Below, piece by piece: positions 42,675-53,825 of a DNA stretch of 64,000 nucleotides. Below the pieces are notes generated by a model. The model saw only the letters and a program-made list of their open reading frames with translations, made no database searches and was not told where the DNA came from. Position 1 is the stretch's first letter; each line of letters opens with the position of its first letter. The stretch spans positions 64,001-128,000 of the forward strand of contig JAMOPO010000015.1 in assembly GCA_027064425.1 (NCBI GenBank), written 5' to 3'. This stretch comes from Methanobacteriota archaeon. GTDB taxonomy: Archaea; JAADCQ01; Methanopyri; Methanopyrales; Methanopyraceae. Both the position numbers and the translations under genes were made by a program.

Positions 42675-42982
42675 CGCTCCCGCCGCTCCTTGAGCTTCTC
42701 GGCGATCATCAGCAGGGTCTTCCGCTTGGACTCCACCTTATCGACGATCAGCCGGCCGCGGTCCTTCCACCAGCTCTTGGGGTACTGCTTGTCCCGCTGC
42801 ACCTCCGGGTTCAGGCCCAGCTCCTCCGCGACCCGCTTGATCTCGCTGAGCCGCGGGTTCCTCACGGCCAGCTTCTTCGGCACCTTCCTACCCTCCGAGC
42901 GCGACCGCTCGGCGTCGAAGTAAACGGGCCAGATCACGACACGGTCCTTGCCCTTCAGCTTGATCGTGGGCGTCTCCGACAT
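42671..42982 (-). CDS. srp19: Signal recognition particle protein SRP19
   Basis: IWPVYFD..RSRSEGRKVP..LAVRNP, YPKSWW, GRLIV. Confidence 0.93.
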   Translation of the reverse strand: MSETPTIKLKGKDRVVIWPVYFDAERSRSEGRKVPKKLAVRNPRLSEIKRVAEELGLNPEVQRDKQYPKSWWKDRGRLIVDKVESKRKTLLMIAEKLKERRER

Positions 42983-44253
42983 CTCGCCCCTCCCCACGGG
43001 AGGGCGGGAATTACCGGGAACTTCTTCCGATTACGATGCCCGGAACCACTCCCGGGCGACCCGGTATTGCCACTCCCGCCCTCCTGACCGGTCTCCGTCC
43101 TTTTACCTCCTCCCTGAGTCCCATGACGATCACCCTGACCGCCCACCTCTCCCGGGCTCTCCCGCCCGGCCCGCTCGCCACCGCTACCGGTGCCCGCGGG
43201 GTTCCCGCCGCCGTGCCCGCCGTGCTTAACGTAGTTTATGGGCACGGAGAGGAGGCGGAGCACCCTCACGTTGACCAGCGGTATCTCGACGATCTGGCCC
43301 CGAAAGGCCAGCTCCGCGAAGGGCTTCCGAACGATGCACTCCACCGGGATCCCGCGCCGGAGGAGCCGTCGCGCGATCTCGAGCACGTCGGAGATCGTTG
43401 AGGCCAGGAAGACGTAGAAGTGTGCACTCAGCCCGCCGCTCAGGCTGACGACCCGGTCGCCGACGAAGAAGGGCAGCAGGTCCTCGGGGACGCCGCTCTC
43501 CGGCACCGGGAACAGCAGCACCGGGACCTCGGCACCGGACTCCTGCAGCGGGTTCGAGACGGCCTCCACGGCCTCCGCGATGTTCAGCTCGAGCGAGTAG
43601 GACGGGACGAGGTAGTAATCCTCCCGCCAGTCGTAGTCCCGGGTCTGGAGCGCGGAGCAGTCCTTCACGATGAAGTACCGCCCGTCGTCCGAGACTCCCG
43701 CGAGCAGGACCGCGTGCATGGCGGGTGGGACGACGACGAACCACTTGCTCACCGCGGCCAGCGGCGCGTAGAGGACGACCCCGAGCCCGTTTGGGCGGTC
43801 CCGGGCTGCGGCCAGCGCGACGAGGGTGGGGAACCATGGTGGCGAGGTGGAGGCCATGGGGCCATCGTAGTACTCGTCCTCGGTCGGGATGCCGGTGACC
43901 CTGGTGAACCAGACCTCACGCCGCTCGAGCGCGAGCGGGGTGACCTCGGATCCCGCGGTGGGCCTCCAGATCCCTTCGGCCACGGCGATGTTGTAGAGGG
44001 TGAGCGCCGCGACCTCGCCGCACCAGGTGTGGTCGGGCCGGCCGTCGCCGTCCACGTCGCGGCCGAACTCGACCTGACCGAAGTCGGGGTTCGCGACCAC
44101 GAACCGGACGTGCGCTGGGTGGAGCAGCCGGACGTCGACGGGGCCCTGAGCCGTCCTCAGCGTGACCGCCGTGATGGTCCAGTCGTACTGCAGGACCTGC
44201 GCGGACGCGGCCGGGCTGGGAAGAAGCAGAAAGGCGATGAGGAGGGTGAGCAC
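42955..44253 (-). CDS. Secreted protein with papain/C39-like peptidase motifs and Pro-rich/basic C-terminal tail
   Basis: Signal peptide; WCGEVA...HAVLLAG...FIVKD; Gly-rich linker; RKKFPVIPALP...RRR. Confidence 0.7.
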   Translation of the reverse strand: MLTLLIAFLLLPSPAASAQVLQYDWTITAVTLRTAQGPVDVRLLHPAHVRFVVANPDFGQVEFGRDVDGDGRPDHTWCGEVAALTLYNIAVAEGIWRPTAGSEVTPLALERREVWFTRVTGIPTEDEYYDGPMASTSPPWFPTLVALAAARDRPNGLGVVLYAPLAAVSKWFVVVPPAMHAVLLAGVSDDGRYFIVKDCSALQTRDYDWREDYYLVPSYSLELNIAEAVEAVSNPLQESGAEVPVLLFPVPESGVPEDLLPFFVGDRVVSLSGGLSAHFYVFLASTISDVLEIARRLLRRGIPVECIVRKPFAELAFRGQIVEIPLVNVRVLRLLSVPINYVKHGGHGGGNPAGTGSGGERAGRESPGEVGGQGDRHGTQGGGKRTETGQEGGSGNTGSPGSGSGHRNRKKFPVIPALPWGGARCRRRPRSS

Positions 44254-48070: not shown

Positions 48071-49114
48071 GTGTTGCTGACTGCGCTGCTAGTCGTGTCG
48101 CTGGTCACGGTTACCAGCGTGACACAGCCCACCGAGGCGTTGACAGTCAATTCGGCGTCCAGGGACTGCCCGCCGTGGGTAGTGCCGGCGCTCTTCGTTC
48201 AGCTGCCTGGAGGAGGCGGTCTCGGATCCCCGAGCCTCACGGGCGACCGTTTCCTGCTCGTGGCACCGCTGTGGCGGGAAGGTGACCACCACCGGGTGAT
48301 CCTCGGCGCGTACGGGGTGGACGAGGTGGTCTTACCGCGGGGAGCGACCGTCCACCGTGTGTTAATTCCGAGCGGGGTGGAGTGGAAGTGGACTGAACTC
48401 TGCAGGCAGGCGGTTCCGCAGGGGCCGTGGCGTGAGGTCCGGTACTCTCTGCGAAAGTCGGACGGGCTGCTCCAGCTTAAGCCGTCGAAGGCCGTGGACA
48501 ACACGTTCGTAGTGGAGGCGAGCCTGCCCGCACGCGGCGAGTGGGTGCGGATCGCGCTGGCGCCGGGTGACTGGCTCGTGGCGCTGGGTTGGAGCATGGA
48601 CTTCAACGTGCTGACGCTGGACGGGAAGGTCCTGTTCCGGGGCCGGCACCCGTACGATGAGGTCGTGTACGACCTGCCGGACGGCGTGCACCTCGCGTTC
48701 TGGGTGCACTGGTACGGGCTGGACTTGAGTGGTGGAGAGAGGTGGACGAGAGTGCCACGCCTCGTAGCTAAGGGTGAAGTACCGAGCGAGTTCAATCCAA
48801 AATGGCAGTACGAGCACGGGCTGTTTTACGGGTACTGCACGGTGCTCGAGGTCCGGACGAGTAAGCCGCTAATCCTGGAGTTTAGAGCGCCGAGGCAAGG
48901 TGAGAAGTTAGAATCCCCCAACGAGCTCGTCGACCGGCGTGAGTTCGTCACGGAGGAGTTCGTGCGCAGCCACCAGTCACATTACGTGCCACCTATCCCT
49001 CCCTCGAAGTTGCTGTACGAAATCCTCAGGGCTCTGCCGGTGCTACCCCTGCTACCGCTCGTCGCTCCCACGGGAAGGCGTGAGGGGGGCCGGCGGAGAG
49101 AAAGGACCGACTGA
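48071..49114 (+). CDS. Secreted hypothetical protein with Pro-rich/basic tail
   Basis: Signal peptide; tail RALPVLPLLPLVAPTGRREGGRRR. Confidence 0.7.
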   Translation: MLLTALLVVSLVTVTSVTQPTEALTVNSASRDCPPWVVPALFVQLPGGGGLGSPSLTGDRFLLVAPLWREGDHHRVILGAYGVDEVVLPRGATVHRVLIPSGVEWKWTELCRQAVPQGPWREVRYSLRKSDGLLQLKPSKAVDNTFVVEASLPARGEWVRIALAPGDWLVALGWSMDFNVLTLDGKVLFRGRHPYDEVVYDLPDGVHLAFWVHWYGLDLSGGERWTRVPRLVAKGEVPSEFNPKWQYEHGLFYGYCTVLEVRTSKPLILEFRAPRQGEKLESPNELVDRREFVTEEFVRSHQSHYVPPIPPSKLLYEILRALPVLPLLPLVAPTGRREGGRRRERTD

Positions 49115-49565
49115 CTGCCGGCTCCGGCGAGCCTGGCGCGACCCCCTTTCCGCTTGCAGAGGCTTCCTGAGCGTCGGTACCAAAGCGGCCTGGGCGCCAG
49201 GCGGACGCACCACCGGGTTCTTCTTACTCCCGCACGGGTTCCTCCCGTCGCCGGCGCACTTGCGTTTGCGGATTGATGGAAGTGACGTGAAATCGCACCG
49301 CGTATGGCGAGGGAATAGCCGTTACCGGGTGGCCCTCGGCATGCGCGAGGGGAGGGAGTTGACCCTACCTCCAATCTGCGGGTTCGCGGACCGTTTCTAG
49401 TATCCGTTTTGCTTACGAGGTTGAGAGCTCTCTCGACCCAGTACCTAAGACTGAACTAACTTTAGGTTGCGCGCTCTCAACGGTTCCTCAATGAGGCAAC
49501 GTGCCACGGATCATTATTATCGATCCGTATTCGTGGGGCTTTGCGACGTACAGGGTCCCGTAGCG

Positions 49566-49609
49566 CTCCTCTCGTAGTGTTAACGGCGCGTTTACGCTCC
49601 GGCGAATCC
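49566..49609 (+). repeat. Copy 2 of the 44-bp degenerate repeat
   Basis: Aligns with 47929-47972. Confidence 0.7.
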
Positions 49610-49742
49610 ATGCGATCTTCATTTTTCGCGGAGAGTTGGTGCCGGGGACGAGGGGACGGAGGCCTTCCCAGTCCTCACCCTCGCAGCTCGGTTTTCCCTG
49701 TGTGAGGCGAGCGTGGGAAGGTGATGCTCGGGGGAGCAGACG

Positions 49743-51380
49743 ATGGCCCGAGCCCTGCTGGTTCTACTAACCCTGGCGGCGGTCGCGACCCCCGCTTCGG
49801 GTGCCACCATCCTCCTACCGGACCTCGTGGGCCAAGCCATCGCGTTGGAGAAGGAGGGGCTGAGGCACGCCACCCCGGTGGCCACGAGAGGGCTCGTCGA
49901 ACGCTTCAACACGCTCGAGAATCTGGCCGTCGACTACGAGTATATATCAACCCCAGACCACCATGATCTCATCATCTTCTGCGGCGAGGTTCGCGTGAGG
50001 ATTACACCCGAAGAGGTCCGCGTAGAGTACTCGACCCAGCGTGGACCGGTCCGGCGCTCGCTATCCCTCAACCCCGAGCACACTTACCTCGTCCTCTCCC
50101 CGCAGGGCCTCCGTACGATCCCAGTCACACCACAGCATAGAGGCAAAGAACTCCCCATCCTCATCATTCGCGGCGGCCGAGCTTACGAGCCCACCACGTA
50201 CCTCCCGTCCTTCATCCTCGGGGACTACGCCGAGAACGTCACCCCACTCGACCAGGCCGTCGGACTCATGGGTGACTGGGACCTCCTCGTCCGGCTGAAG
50301 ATCGAGGGTGAGACCGTCGCCTTCGACCTCGTGAGGTCGGACGGCTCGGGCGCCTACCGCGTCGTCTGCGACCTAAGAACGGGGAGCGCCTGGCGCGAGC
50401 CCCTGCCGCCCGGGGAGGCCCGGAGGCTCCTCGACCTCGCCCGCGAGGACCTCGCCAAGCTCCACAAGCTGAAATCCGGCGAGCTCGAGAGCGAGCCGGG
50501 GCTACGACTGATCGTCTACGACGCCACCGAGGGCAGGGTCCTCCTGGAGCTCGCGCGCCCCTCCCTAAGGTTCATCCGGGAGTGTAACCCGCGTCTCGCA
50601 GGACTCCTCGAGCTCCTTCAACAAATTAGGATGGAGAGGCTCATCAAGTGGGATCTCCTCCAGCTCTCCCTCCGGGCTCACGAGCTCCAGGACCTCCTCG
50701 AGAGCGCGGGGCTCGCGAGCACGAGGGCGATCCGGTGCCTCCTGCACCCGGAGCTCGTCCTGGGGTCATACCTCCTCACGGCCGGTCTTGGACTTGCGGC
50801 CTTCCTGCCCTGGATCGAGCTGCTGAAACGCTTCCCGCGGCTAGGCGAGGCGCCCGAGTTCAGGTGGGAACCTTCGACCCTCCTTGAGTACGCGGAGCGC
50901 CTAGTGTACGCGGGGACCCTCTGCGGCGTAGAAGCCGCTTATCGGGTGTGCTGTAAGGTCGCCGTCGAGGTCCTACTGCGTGCCTTGGGGCTCTGGGATT
51001 ACGCGATGAACGGTAAAGTCCTAGAGCTCACGGGCTGCATTGTCTGGGCTCCGCTGTTCGAGGAATCGACGAAGCGGTTGATGAGTGCGCTCACCGGACT
51101 GCCACGATGGCTTGTGGGGCTCTGGTACGGGCTGTTAGAGGCCGTAGAATGGCGTGAAATCTGGCCGGGCGAGCTGAAACCTGTGAGGGTAGTCTGGAGG
51201 GTCATCGATCACATCGCGTACTCGGTCCTTCCGCTGCCACTCGGTGCGCTCCTGCACTCGCTTTGGAACGTGATAAGCGACCTCGGAGGCGAGATCCTCG
51301 AGTACTGGCCCGGAGTGCTTGGCATGACGCTCGCCGCACTTGGAGCACTGGTGGAGAACGCGCTGACTGGGGTGTGGTGA
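49743..51380 (+). CDS. Secreted-domain fusion to PrsW/CPBP-like intramembrane protease
   Basis: Signal peptide; C-terminal TM region with PLFEESTK, YGLLE, DH and LLHSLWN motifs. Confidence 0.72.
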   Translation: MARALLVLLTLAAVATPASGATILLPDLVGQAIALEKEGLRHATPVATRGLVERFNTLENLAVDYEYISTPDHHDLIIFCGEVRVRITPEEVRVEYSTQRGPVRRSLSLNPEHTYLVLSPQGLRTIPVTPQHRGKELPILIIRGGRAYEPTTYLPSFILGDYAENVTPLDQAVGLMGDWDLLVRLKIEGETVAFDLVRSDGSGAYRVVCDLRTGSAWREPLPPGEARRLLDLAREDLAKLHKLKSGELESEPGLRLIVYDATEGRVLLELARPSLRFIRECNPRLAGLLELLQQIRMERLIKWDLLQLSLRAHELQDLLESAGLASTRAIRCLLHPELVLGSYLLTAGLGLAAFLPWIELLKRFPRLGEAPEFRWEPSTLLEYAERLVYAGTLCGVEAAYRVCCKVAVEVLLRALGLWDYAMNGKVLELTGCIVWAPLFEESTKRLMSALTGLPRWLVGLWYGLLEAVEWREIWPGELKPVRVVWRVIDHIAYSVLPLPLGALLHSLWNVISDLGGEILEYWPGVLGMTLAALGALVENALTGVW

Positions 51381-51385
51381 GGTAC

Positions 51386-52434
51386 ATGGGGGCCGGCGCT
51401 CCTCTTACCTCATCCTAGGGCTGTTCCTAGCGCTGGCCCCAGCTTCAGGGAAACCGCTGATCCTGGGGAGTCTCTCGGAGGACTTGAAGCTCCTGCAGGG
51501 GTACTTCCGAAATCAAGTCCTGCCCAAGTGGAGGGATGACCCGCGCGTGATCGTGGACGTCACGCAATACTCGGAGTCGCCAGCGAGGTGGGCGGTTTAC
51601 GTACCAAAGAAGGACCTTTTCGTGTACATGTTCGTGCCCTCGAGGATGCGGACGTCGGTTGAACCGGGGCGCGTTCAGGTGGTGCTTCCACCGGTGACGG
51701 GCGGGAGACCCGTCGTGGTAGAGGAGCGTTTGGAGAGCCCGGCGGTGGTTGTGAGCGTGGATCAATTCTGCCCACTGGCGAGCGCGTCCTTAGACGTCGT
51801 GGTGGGGGACCATGTGTGCAGCTTCCTCCGCATTGATGTTCCCGTGCTCGGAGGCCCTTGCTCGGTCGAGTACGTCCTCACCCTGAGGGTTGGGGACCGG
51901 ATGGTCGACGAGGAGGTTCTGAAATCGTTCGACCCGGTGGATGTGGAGTACGCGGTGTACCCGGACCGGGTGGTCATGAGGATATTCGGGATCCCGGAAG
52001 GGGTTGAGGACCGAGCGCTCGTCATCAACGCGACGTTCGACCTCCGGCGTGACAGGATCCTCGTTGAGCGCTGGGAGAGTGCGGACCCGAGGCTGATCTC
52101 CAGGCTGCGCGAGCTGAAGAGGAAGTGGGCCACGCCCCCTGAGGAAGGGATCGCGGAGTTCTTCGGTGGATTACTGCGCGAGCGCTCCGGCGTGAAGCCC
52201 CTCTTGGTGGGCTTCCAACTACCGCACGACGACCCGCTGGTGCGGTTCGTCGAGAAGGTAGTCAGGATGTACAACCAGGGCGCCGGTGAGGAGGAACTCC
52301 AGAAGGCCATGGAAGAGCACCCGAACGTCGAGTTCCTGTTCCCGAAAAAGGGTGCAAAGGAAGCTTCGAGGTTCCCAGTGTGGATGCCACCACTGCCACT
52401 AGTGCCGCAAGTGGGTCGCCGGAACAGCGCCTGA
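51386..52434 (+). pseudogene. Secreted protein gene frameshifted in a G5 run just after the ATG (or intact if sequencing error)
   Basis: SD GGTGAGGT then ATG 51386; one extra G joins it to RRSSYLILGLFLALAPASG signal peptide and ORF 51484-52434; tail SRFPVWMPPLPLVPQVGRR. Confidence 0.65.
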
Positions 52435-53240: not shown

Positions 53241-53825
53241 CTACGCCCGAACTCCACCGCCCGAGCTAGGTTGAGCGTCCGACACTCGATGCCTCCCGTC
53301 CCGGGACCTGCGATACAGGAGCTTTTTGAGCACTCGCTCGGCGAACCAGGCCTCCCACGGACCGAGCACGACGCGCGCGAACTTGGGGACTTTCTTGAGC
53401 AGGTCACCAACGCGGGGCGTGTCCGCGGGGGCGAGGGACGGGAAGGCGGCCAGAAGACGCGCTATCATCCTGCGCGTATCCTTTACCCGCCGCGCCCTCA
53501 TAGCGATCAGCTTCAGGCTTGTTCGGAGGTGCCGCACGGCCAACCTCGCCAGCTCGAGCACTCGCTCCTCCGACTGCTCGGCCAACCACTCCACGAACTC
53601 GACACTCGGGTTCGACTTGCCCAGGTAGATCAGGCGCGGGTGCCGGTACCTCCGCGTCCGCTTGAAGTACGCCACGAAGTACGGCCCGTAGGTCTTCCCA
53701 CCGATCTTACGATAAGTCTCCTGCAGCTTGGGCTTAACCCGCCTCCGGTACGCCTCGCGCAGCACACGAAGGCATCGAATGCGTTCCACGGGGTCGGTCG
53801 GTAGGGGCACCCCGGTCCAGGTCAC
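53241..53825 (-). CDS. Basic Methanopyrus-family protein (DUF1678-like)
   Basis: KIGGKTYGPYFVAY...LIYLGKS motif, very Arg/Lys-rich. Confidence 0.65.
   Translation of the reverse strand: MTWTGVPLPTDPVERIRCLRVLREAYRRRVKPKLQETYRKIGGKTYGPYFVAYFKRTRRYRHPRLIYLGKSNPSVEFVEWLAEQSEERVLELARLAVRHLRTSLKLIAMRARRVKDTRRMIARLLAAFPSLAPADTPRVGDLLKKVPKFARVVLGPWEAWFAERVLKKLLYRRSRDGRHRVSDAQPSSGGGVRA

Follow-up and report, generated by a model that had tools for sequence, protein, structure and literature searches.

PrsW of Bacillus subtilis is the site-1 protease of the anti-sigma factor RsiW, and the substrate of the Haloferax PrsW homolog is given as 'unknown' in the excerpted text of the same source (PMC9263693). 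Some C-terminal CTERM signals are sorted by proteases of the CPBP family (PMC11980579 and the Haft preprint, both in excerpt). According to the part of the Haft preprint considered here, the known CPBP-sorted signals all contain an invariant Cys, and a cognate sorting enzyme is expected to be universal, single-copy and conserved. The original prediction for the locus described below had drawn on this CPBP precedent, which is indeed documented, in proposing a PrsW/CPBP-type protease as the candidate processing enzyme of a Pro-rich/Arg tail or, alternatively, as a sensor.

We analysed a 64,000-nucleotide stretch of DNA (the window) from a genome designated G000, together with five other Methanopyrus genomes (G001 to G005). 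Methanopyrus, a methanogen of hot vents, is a deep-branching hyperthermophile. To our knowledge, a substrate has yet to be assigned to any PrsW-type protease from archaea, and we know of nothing on how the many lineage-specific surface proteins of Methanopyrus are anchored.

RESULTS

An exported polytopic membrane protein with a large ectodomain

The ORF at 49743-51380 is a genuine gene (Table 1). Homologs align with its protein over the full length, and the AF2 model of the whole protein has a mean pLDDT of 77.5. The N-terminus is signal-peptide-like, as originally predicted, and homologs share the same start Met. From the sequence we infer that this peptide is cleavable; its 'PASG' end is common to the N-termini of the downstream gene's family.

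AF2 places a region of ~310 aa before a helix bundle, in agreement with the large ectodomain of about 300 aa that had been proposed. Residues 44-271 are beta-rich with helices after them, and seven helices lie within residues 337-542. The ectodomain has no Pfam match, a language-model search with residues 24-330 gave no usable match, and comparison of its fold with solved structures returned only weak propeller-blade-like fragments (Z<=4.3). When residues 325-545 were modelled separately, pLDDT was 86.3 and pTM 0.81; only two of the seven helices of this C-terminal bundle are strongly hydrophobic.

Table 1. Positions and strand of the PrsW-like gene, its parts and its neighbours in the window. 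Motif conservation was calculated from 10 aligned sequences of the PrsW-like family.
Feature	Positions	Strand	Description	Basis
PrsW-like gene	49743..51380	+	545 aa, ATG start, stop codon within coordinates	ORF
Signal peptide	49743..49802	+	residues 1-20, MARALLVLLTLAAVATPASG	sequence reading; hydropathy peak residues 5-23
Ectodomain	49803..50747	+	about residues 21-335, ~310 aa; beta-rich, then helical	AF2 secondary structure
C-terminal seven-helix membrane domain with PrsW-like core	50748..51377	+	residues 336-545	AF2
Motif 1	51057..51077	+	FEESTKR, residues 439-445, EExxKR	E441, K444, R445 >=90% conserved
Motif 2	51126..51140	+	YGLLE, residues 462-466	Y462, E466 >=90% conserved
Motif 3	51207..51221	+	DHIAY from residue 489, with H490	H490 >=90% conserved
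Motif 4	51255..51269	+	HSLWN, residues 505-509	H505 invariant, N509 variable
Upstream tail-bearing gene	48071..49114	+	347 aa, signal peptide, Methanopyrus-specific family	ORF
Tail of upstream gene	49034..49111	+	LPVLPLLPLVAPTGRREGGRRRERTD	sequence reading, tail census
Downstream tail-bearing gene	51367..52434	+	candidate start only	frame open from 51367
Tail of downstream gene	52372..52431	+	FPVWMPPLPLVPQVGRRNSA	sequence reading, tail census
Third tail-bearing gene in the window	42955..44253	-	432 aa, ending FPVIPALPWGGARCRRRPRSS	ORF, tail census
DUF1678 gene	53241..53825	-	Methanopyrus family; closes the lower-GC island	PF07913 E 1.2e-41

The membrane domain looks like a very diverged PrsW core

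The original prediction held that all four family motifs are present. Their order is as described (FEESTK at 439, YGLLE at 462, H490, HSLWN at 505), and AF2 puts them in that order on helices 425-451, 455-469, 480-495 and 498-514; the family assignment that the motifs were meant to convey, on the other hand, finds no HMM match, and N509 is variable. The arrangement on successive membrane helices is that of PrsW (EExxK/R, E, H, HxxxN/D), this variable position aside; the motif definitions were in part taken from G000's own PrsW. The bare order EE..K/E/H/H...N occurs in 46 of the 1459 coding-like ORFs of G000, and is therefore weak evidence by itself. A context pattern derived from the family was far more selective, recovering 4/1459 ORFs, namely three copies of the family and the sole Pfam-certified PrsW of G000.

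Among the aligned homologs, H505 and S506 are invariant (10/10), and position 509 is N, S, A or D. A second subfamily in G002 shares 38-40% identity with the protein over a core of 73-81 aa and little similarity elsewhere. It keeps motif 1 and H490, and its motif 2 reads YGLLEGLW; E441, E466, H490 and H505 are preserved across two diverged subfamilies. We regard E440/E441, E466, H490 and H505 as the putative catalytic residues. That they are the best conserved positions in the intact copies of subfamilies which share little else speaks for an active site maintained by selection, and against the view that the family has lost its catalytic function.

Searches of Pfam and NCBIfam with the protein returned no model at E<=1 or at E<=10, and it accordingly falls outside PF13367 / NF033739 at the curated cut-offs; its flanking genes likewise gave no usable hit to these collections. 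The HMM check suggested along with the original prediction therefore found no PrsW/Rce1-like family match for the target, an outcome which that prediction had itself named as counting against it. One homolog, P0013 (41% identity to the target, phmmer E 9e-10), was the only one of the 13 family members to match PF13367 at E 2.1e-4, with 21.3 bits, below the cut-off of 23.5. The named language-model clusters nearest to residues 395-545 were PrsW (0.87, 0.83 and 0.83), YhfC (0.80) and CPBP (0.79).

Motif 2 of CPBP proteins is FxxxH, and this position reads YGLLE in the present protein. Neither the target nor anything else in G000 matches PF02517, a model that in the control search matched 12 of 14 known genomes; membership in CPBP/Rce1 therefore fails both by HMM and by motif 2.

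Structure comparisons returned no clear CPBP or PrsW match for either the whole model or the C-terminal domain. With hhalign, the alignment between the PrsW-like family and the genus's true PrsW was confined to the EE motif and spanned 20-22 columns, with a probability of 0.35-1.1% and an E of 0.049-0.17; both profiles were shallow (Neff about 1.7-1.9). The profile of alignment A3 had 0 matches at E<=10 among PDB sequences. Foldseek against the PDB gave nothing at E<=0.001 for the C-terminal domain and only multi-domain noise (TM about 0.1) for the whole model. In the fold comparison of the C-terminal domain the best rows were unrelated helical bundles (Z 8.1), with APH-1B (Z 5.6) and SpdC (Z 4.9) within noise, and Rce1 was not among the matches listed; against BFVD, a 'CAAX protease family protein' appeared at rank 46 (TM 0.37, E 3.4).

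Taken together, the sub-threshold match of P0013, the language-model clusters, the context pattern and the residues kept across subfamilies suggest that the membrane domain resembles the core of a PrsW-type (glutamic-type) intramembrane protease, though one that has diverged very far. Of the PrsW/CPBP-type label, the PrsW resemblance survives in the motifs, in P0013 and in the language-model neighbours; formal family membership and the CPBP FxxxH do not.

The PrsW-like family is restricted to Methanopyrus and volatile

Only 13 proteins among 1.84 billion representatives matched the protein at E<=1e-3. Matches to the family were obtained in 4/5 other Methanopyrus genomes and in 0/15 genomes of other taxonomic families; the family is restricted to the genus. 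It was not found in G004, which is 94% complete.

Six loci are present in G000; one of them is in fragments, and contig ends truncate another two. Among the four loci of G002, the best-matching (main) copy is interrupted by an in-frame TAG. In G003 the copy is split and has neither of the two His residues, and the G001 copy, P0016, has WE in place of EE; several loci are disrupted by stops or frameshifts. The family is volatile and multi-copy, and comprises two or more subfamilies whose ectodomains are not alike. Its members are located in islands of lower GC that hold lineage-specific genes for surface proteins. The island of the present gene is likewise lower in GC, and strain-level indels adjoin the gene. 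In G003 and G005, the gene immediately upstream of the PrsW-like gene is a homolog of DUF1678. The island gave no hits in scans for Rfam families and tRNAs.

Neighbouring genes carry an uncatalogued C-terminal tail

Both genes flanking the PrsW-like gene encode the tail, as had been noted originally and as their ORFs confirm. Its layout is a PVxP motif, a Pro-rich hydrophobic stretch and an Arg cluster. The downstream gene had been thought to start 6 nt past the stop of the PrsW-like gene. An ATG is indeed present there, at 51386, but it is one base off the frame of the long ORF and meets a TAG after 10 codons; the first in-frame ATG, GTG or TTG of the downstream ORF is TTG 51484. Orthologs of the downstream gene in G002 show 49-68% identity.

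The tail census returned 26 of 1459 ORFs in G000, a 59-fold C-terminal enrichment relative to internal windows of coding-like ORFs. This control was chosen because the loose tail regex is about equally common in non-coding frames (108/6197, versus 32/1459 coding-like ORFs). As few orthologs of two tail-bearing proteins were found in the sister genomes, conservation of the tail was judged from individual sister-genome ORFs and from the census of G002 (25/1609 ORFs); examples also occur in G001, G004 and G005. The tails lack a conserved Cys, and many are too short and too Pro-rich for a normal membrane helix. None of the 16 tail proteins scanned matched a catalogued CTERM model.

Tail genes lie close to PrsW-like loci in some genomes

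In the complete sister genome G002, all four PrsW-like loci have a tail ORF less than 2 kb away (gaps of 159, 836, 1031 and 1931 nt), compared to a background of 6.0% of 1609 ORFs and to 4/15 for DUF1678, used as an island control. The tail genes concerned belong to different families. In G000, 3/6 loci have a tail ORF within 3 kb versus a background of 5.7%, all three being one duplicated cassette; paralogs of the upstream tail gene adjoin protease paralogs on contigs C53 and C50. The nearest tail ORFs are about 4 and 7 kb away from the PrsW-like gene in G001, and 3.5 kb away in G003. We also considered whether the neighbours specifically carry short Pro-rich tails. This is so for 4/4 in G002, but about 17/25 tails there are of that type, and the feature is not distinctive.

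The paralog and co-occurrence check that had been suggested thus gave a divided answer. Proximity exceeds the background in G002, but the family is multi-copy, the tail occurs in G004, where the family was not found, and G001 and G003 show no closeness. As the tail genes and the PrsW-like family are concentrated in the same islands, proximity may reflect shared location only; as the loci do lie near tail genes, their products may serve as accessory proteases for surface proteins encoded next to them.

For general tail processing, an archaeosortase-family gene is the stronger candidate

G000 encodes one archaeosortase-family protein (G000:C57:~74.0-74.5 kb). It scored 29.4 bits against PF09721 (cut-off 25.7) and 41.3 against TIGR04178 (cut-off 23), with every subtype model below cut-off. 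The gene is single-copy in 6/6 Methanopyrus genomes (55-84% identity). As in an archaeosortase system, a gene above cut-off co-occurs with a tripartite C-terminal signal.

The PrsW-like family does not show what is expected of a cognate sorting protease, which would be conserved, typically single-copy and present in every signal-bearing genome. Being multi-copy, often broken and not found in the tail-bearing G004, it has a profile unlike that of such an enzyme. In addition, the tails lack the invariant Cys of the known CPBP-sorted signals (Haft preprint, in excerpt), and 22 of the 26 strict-tail genes of G000 lie outside the window. The archaeosortase-family gene is the better and more economical candidate for general tail processing, and sorting of the tail in general is probably not the task of the PrsW-like protein. 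The role of candidate tail-processing enzyme, originally assigned to the latter, is better filled by the former.

DISCUSSION

Our tentative account, to which we give somewhat less than an even chance, is that this exported, polytopic, Methanopyrus-restricted membrane protein has a diverged PrsW core and acts as an accessory surface-protein protease rather than as the general tail sorter. An accessory protease role appears to be the likeliest one; its proteolytic activity, its substrates and the site of cleavage are inferred. Certain surface proteins that are tethered to the membrane and encoded close by, some of them tail-bearing, would be recognised by the ectodomain. The membrane domain would cut these proteins at the membrane's outer surface or close to it, resulting in their release, maturation or turnover. 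Such a cut would be analogous to the extracytoplasmic site-1 cut of RsiW by PrsW. General tail sorting would fall to the archaeosortase-family gene.

A sensor or regulatory protease is an unlikely alternative, in which the ectodomain would sense a signal, the core would make a site-1 cut in a membrane-tethered regulator and the tail-bearing neighbours would be bystanders. The PrsW-like core fits this, as does a large extracellular domain of no recognised fold that could bind a ligand, and site-1 cleavage of an anti-sigma factor is what PrsW is known for (PMC9263693, in excerpt). However, no candidate membrane-tethered regulator adjoins the gene, whose neighbours are exported proteins and the DUF1678 gene. 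We also know of no sigma or anti-sigma systems in Archaea, and their absence weighs against this reading. Multi-copy, decaying paralogs are atypical of a core signalling protease, and G000 already has a conserved, canonical PrsW.

It is still less probable that the family is non-catalytic or decaying, its core being a relic, and that the protein is a surface receptor, a scaffold or an immunity-type protein of a variable island, or is simply near loss. The many split or degenerate copies, the lack of any model-level family match, the variable N509 and the lower-GC island with its adjoining strain-level indels would be consistent with this, and non-catalytic membrane proteins of the CPBP family are known, namely SpdC and CflP (the latter from PMC13692083, in excerpt). 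The conservation of the putative catalytic residues in intact copies is the evidence that stands against it. Least probable of all, and quite doubtful, is a cognate processing or sorting enzyme that strips most or all of the Pro-rich/Arg tails as a PrsW/CPBP-type counterpart of myxosortase: tail genes on both flanks, the 4/4 proximity in G002 and an uncatalogued tail favour it, and the patchy, often broken family, the archaeosortase-family gene, single-copy in all six genomes, the missing Cys and the many tail genes elsewhere in the genome oppose it.

The accessory-protease account can be extended to a two-tier surface system, which we consider improbable as a whole. Proteins with the uncatalogued tail, here a 'PVxP-CTERM' signal, would be processed by a new archaeosortase subtype, and expanding and decaying PrsW-like proteases, every one equipped with an ectodomain of its own, would selectively shed or mature co-diversifying tail-bearing neighbours, thereby varying the archaeal cell surface. 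The short, proline-patterned versions of PVxP-CTERM would in such a system be unable to form a normal membrane helix.

The locus presents a testable pair, a protease-like membrane protein with a putative recognition domain and, encoded next to it, candidate substrates that have an uncatalogued tail in common, and the rival enzyme, the archaeosortase, is encoded in the same genome. Identification of the tail-cutting enzyme would define a new class of CTERM signal, and could bring to light that surface proteins are processed at a further, accessory level. Even as a decaying relic, the PrsW-like gene would still mark fast-evolving surface islands in Methanopyrus.

Among known systems, the closest comparison is with the true PrsW of G000, a canonical and conserved protein (54.2 bits against PF13367). 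Its motifs, APLVEELSKG, FATIEN, H and HAAFN, follow the same order, but the gaps between motifs are much tighter in the PrsW-like protein (24, 25 and 15 residues, compared to 70, 31 and 35). Relative to PF13367 PrsW in general, the PrsW-like family adds a lineage-specific ectodomain of ~310 aa before the core, is multi-copy and genus-restricted, and has a variable N in the last motif. Rce1 and the CPBP (Abi) proteins resemble it in the EExxxR-type first motif (EESTKR), the HxxxN last motif and the membrane-embedded helical bundle, whereas it has no PF02517 match and no clear structural match to their solved members. The CPBP-family enzymes of CTERM sorting likewise have a glutamic-type core and variable N-terminal domains, and occur in genomes with dozens of tripartite tails; they differ in belonging to PF02517, in being universal and single-copy with their signal and in acting on Cys-containing signals, while the PrsW-like family is patchy and accompanies tails without a conserved Cys (Haft preprint, in excerpt). 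The likeness to archaeosortase and PGF-CTERM (ArtA) concerns the tail, which is similarly tripartite, with PVxP, a hydrophobic stretch and an Arg cluster; here the G000 enzyme differs in scoring below the subtype cut-offs, and the tail in belonging to no catalogued CTERM model and in being, in many cases, short and Pro-rich.

Architecture of the PrsW-like protein and its island

The studied genome (G000) comprises 1.54 Mb in 57 contigs with a GC content of ~68%. Its PrsW-like target gene is listed with related features in the table. Homologs of the protein share its start Met and align end to end with 55–71% identity. The N-terminus, MARALLVLLTLAAVATPASG, is signal-peptide-like, with the hydropathy peak at residues 5–23. 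An AF2 model from a 13-row alignment (mean pLDDT 77.5) has a beta-rich part (44–271), helices to ~334 and then seven helices (337–542); the C-terminal domain modelled alone (residues 325–545) reached pLDDT 86.3 and pTM 0.81. The original prediction of four motifs in order, FEESTK at 439, YGLLE at 462, H490 and HSLWN at 505, was borne out by the sequence, and its description of the gene was largely right.

The gene lies in an island (48.0–53.9 kb) with a GC content of 63–65% versus 69–70% in the flanks. Every gene in it is specific to Methanopyrus: the two with tails, the PrsW-like one, and a DUF1678 gene that closes the island. Housekeeping genes (ACT, homoserine dehydrogenase and an AIR-synthase-like gene) occupy one flank, and OsmC and a membrane transporter the other. 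Scans of the island for tRNA genes and for Rfam families were both negative. The 628-nt gap upstream of the target (49115–49742) has an AT-richer stretch at about 49400–49560; the corresponding space in the C53 and C50 paralogs of this cassette is occupied by an additional paralog of the upstream gene in opposite orientation.

The downstream gene had been placed 6 nt past the target's stop. An ATG does exist there (51386), but it lies one base off the frame of the long ORF and runs into a TAG after 10 codons. The signal-peptide-coding part (…RRSSYLILGLFLALAPASG; region 51367–51490) is in the frame of the long ORF, whose first in-frame ATG/GTG/TTG is TTG 51484. Paralogs in the complete sister genome, G002, have a TTG start (MLPYLVLG…) directly after the upstream stop, where the equivalent codon here is CGC. 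In contigs from three runs of another study 51386 is GTG, and one of these shows an additional C following 51400. The anomaly could come from an indel error, from unusual initiation or from the gene being a pseudogene.

Features of G000 and G002 (C, contigs, of G000 unless G002 is named; bare numbers, coordinates in the window, which spans C15:64001-128000; L001, stretch around the archaeosortase-family gene)
Feature	Location	Strand	Remarks
Third tail gene in window	42955-44253	-	tail at C-terminus
Upstream tail gene	48071-49114	+	
PrsW-like gene (target)	49743-51380	+	ATG start, 545 aa
Downstream tail gene	51367-52434	+	
PrsW-like locus	C53		71% identical to target
PrsW-like locus	C8		56% identical to target
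PrsW-like loci	C50, C42		both truncated by contig ends
PrsW-like locus	C15:253-254.6 kb		broken across several frames
Second PrsW-like subfamily, ORF 1	G002:C1:1282214-1283974		586 codons stop to stop; different N-terminal domain
Second PrsW-like subfamily, ORF 2	G002:C1:1369122-1370000		292 codons stop to stop; short N-terminus
Canonical PrsW	C15:34474-35193		outside window; 208 aa, PF13367 54 bits
Archaeosortase-family gene	L001:1441-1926		161 aa; only one in G000

Relationship of the membrane domain to PrsW

Of the proposed PrsW/CPBP assignment, the resemblance proved real, in the motifs and in indirect lines of evidence, but it stayed below threshold, and model-based tests do not place the target in the family. 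The protein matched zero Pfam/NCBIfam families at E ≤ 1 and zero at E ≤ 10, its family profile had zero matches among PDB sequences, and hhalign aligned the family with the genus's true PrsW over 20–22 columns, around the EE motif only. The top rows of fold searches with the protein or its C-terminal domain were unrelated helical bundles; two proteins with the CPBP fold, APH-1B (Z 5.6) and SpdC (Z 4.9), were inside the noise. FxxxH is a CPBP motif; it is absent from the target, and PF02517 (CPBP proper) has no match anywhere in G000.

Four indirect lines converge on PrsW as the relative. The genome's sole certified PrsW (PF13367, 54.2 bits) has the same motif order (APLVEELSKG, FATIEN, H, HAAFN). 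P0013, a homolog from a low-GC relative, is 41% identical to target residues 410–545 (phmmer E 9e-10, 1.84-billion-protein library) and its PF13367 match (E 2.1e-4, 21.3 bits) falls just short of the 23.5 cut-off; it alone among the 13 family members has such a sub-threshold match. In a language-model search with residues 395–545 the nearest named clusters were PrsW (0.87/0.83/0.83), YhfC (0.80) and CPBP (0.79), and since all scores are <0.9 we treat this neighbourhood as a lead only. A family-derived context pattern selected 4/1459 coding-like ORFs, namely three family copies and the true PrsW, versus 46/1459 for the bare residue order. Across 10 sequences E441, K444, R445, Y462, E466 and H490 are conserved at ≥90% and H505 is invariant. 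Motif spacing much tighter than in PrsW, only two strongly hydrophobic helices in the bundle, and N509 (of HSLWN), which varies among homologs, count against a simple PrsW reading. The C-terminal domain is probably a very diverged PrsW-type core. The canonical PrsW is 50–65% identical in other Methanopyrus genomes and has no adjoining tail gene in our census.

The PrsW-like family is genus-confined and unstable

At E ≤ 1e-3 only 13 proteins of the representative library belonged to the family. Its range is limited to the genus, with matches in four of the five other Methanopyrus genomes and in 0/15 genomes from other families; G004 (94% complete) had no match. It is present in multiple copies and is unstable. 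G000 has six loci, counting the target. The best-matching G002 locus carries an in-frame TAG, the split G003 copy lacks both His residues, and one G001 copy has WE in place of EE. A second subfamily in G002, not found in G000, has only a ~75-aa core in common with the target (38–40% identity) and keeps its motif residues (APxVEEPFKRL, YGLLEGLW, H, LPLPxAMExH).

Contigs from public runs stop or start directly past the target's stop codon, at 51383–51385, and several very short G000 contigs (among C53, C50, C8 and C42) are copies of its cassette. We therefore regard the family as a repeat at which assemblies break; its copy number may be higher than counted here.

Tail genes and their proximity to PrsW-like loci

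Both neighbours of the target end in the claimed tail (PVxP, a Pro-rich hydrophobic stretch and an Arg cluster). For the census we took stop-terminated ORFs of ≥100 codons, stop to stop, excluding those that ran off a contig end unterminated; 1459 ORFs with coding-like codon-position GC were retained and 6197 others set aside. A looser pattern was not enriched over non-coding frames, and internal windows were therefore used as the control. The strict pattern (PVx(x)P, an uncharged stretch, and an Arg pair within 14 residues of the end) was found in 26/1459 C-termini versus 15/49707 internal windows, a 59-fold enrichment. A slightly wider pattern gave 25/1609 in G002, and examples occur in G001, G004 and G005. 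Tails range from helix-length (PVLPVLALVALLPLAARRR) to short proline-patterned forms (PVIPVPPLAPARRQR), and 0/16 tail proteins scanned matched NCBIfam CTERM models.

About 25 proteins per genome (G000, G002) end in basic residues, PVxP, a hydrophobic or Pro-rich stretch and RRR (in G000, for example, C9:577-2445, C3:58221-59717 and C15:212032-214935). They include prenyltransferase/squalene-cyclase-repeat proteins, and one coiled-coil protein has a weak S-layer SlaB match.

Each of the four G002 PrsW-like loci has a tail ORF no more than 2 kb away (gaps of 159, 836, 1031 and 1931 nt), versus a background of 6.0% of ORFs and 4/15 for DUF1678 genes of the same islands; these tail genes are of different families and orientations. 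In G000 a tail gene lies within 3 kb of 3/6 loci (background 5.7%), the three being one duplicated cassette and one neighbour, C53:4442-5506, being outside the strict regex and counted by eye. In G001 the closest tail ORFs lie at distances of ~4 and ~7 kb, and in G003 the closest lies at 3.5 kb. Relatives do not count as independent samples, and tail genes and PrsW-like loci are both concentrated in lineage-specific islands; the link is only suggestive.

In a recurring order, the PrsW-like gene is followed by a gene for a protein of 263–283 aa whose C-terminal part is hydrophobic (G002:C1:1367297-1370000; G001 around a contig start), and in G002 next comes a tail-bearing paralog of the gene downstream of the target.

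Candidate roles and comparison with sorting enzymes

Our best guess, tentatively held, is that the target is a putative accessory protease that would act on neighbouring tethered surface proteins, with which the proximity of tail genes is consistent. A sensor protease, a reading in which the ectodomain would do the sensing, is unlikely. A decaying relic without catalysis would agree with the broken copies; we consider this reading somewhat less likely again. Least probable is the originally proposed sorting enzyme of the tail, given the profile mismatch described below and a single-copy archaeosortase.

The archaeosortase-family gene exceeds the cut-offs of PF09721 and TIGR04178, stays below each subtype cut-off, and is single-copy in each of the five other genus genomes (55–84% identity). 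Just before it, 7 nt away, is the gene for a 296-aa membrane protein that matched no NCBIfam model. The pair (L001:544-1926, G000:C57:~73.1-74.5 kb) is also adjacent in G001 and G004, suggesting a conserved two-gene unit that belongs to an uncatalogued archaeosortase subtype.

In the Haft preprint, CPBP-sorted signals are described as having an invariant Cys; a conserved Cys is missing from Methanopyrus tails. The sorting-enzyme profile given there (universal, conserved, single-copy) fits the archaeosortase and does not fit the PrsW-like family; general tail processing is therefore quite likely the task of the archaeosortase.
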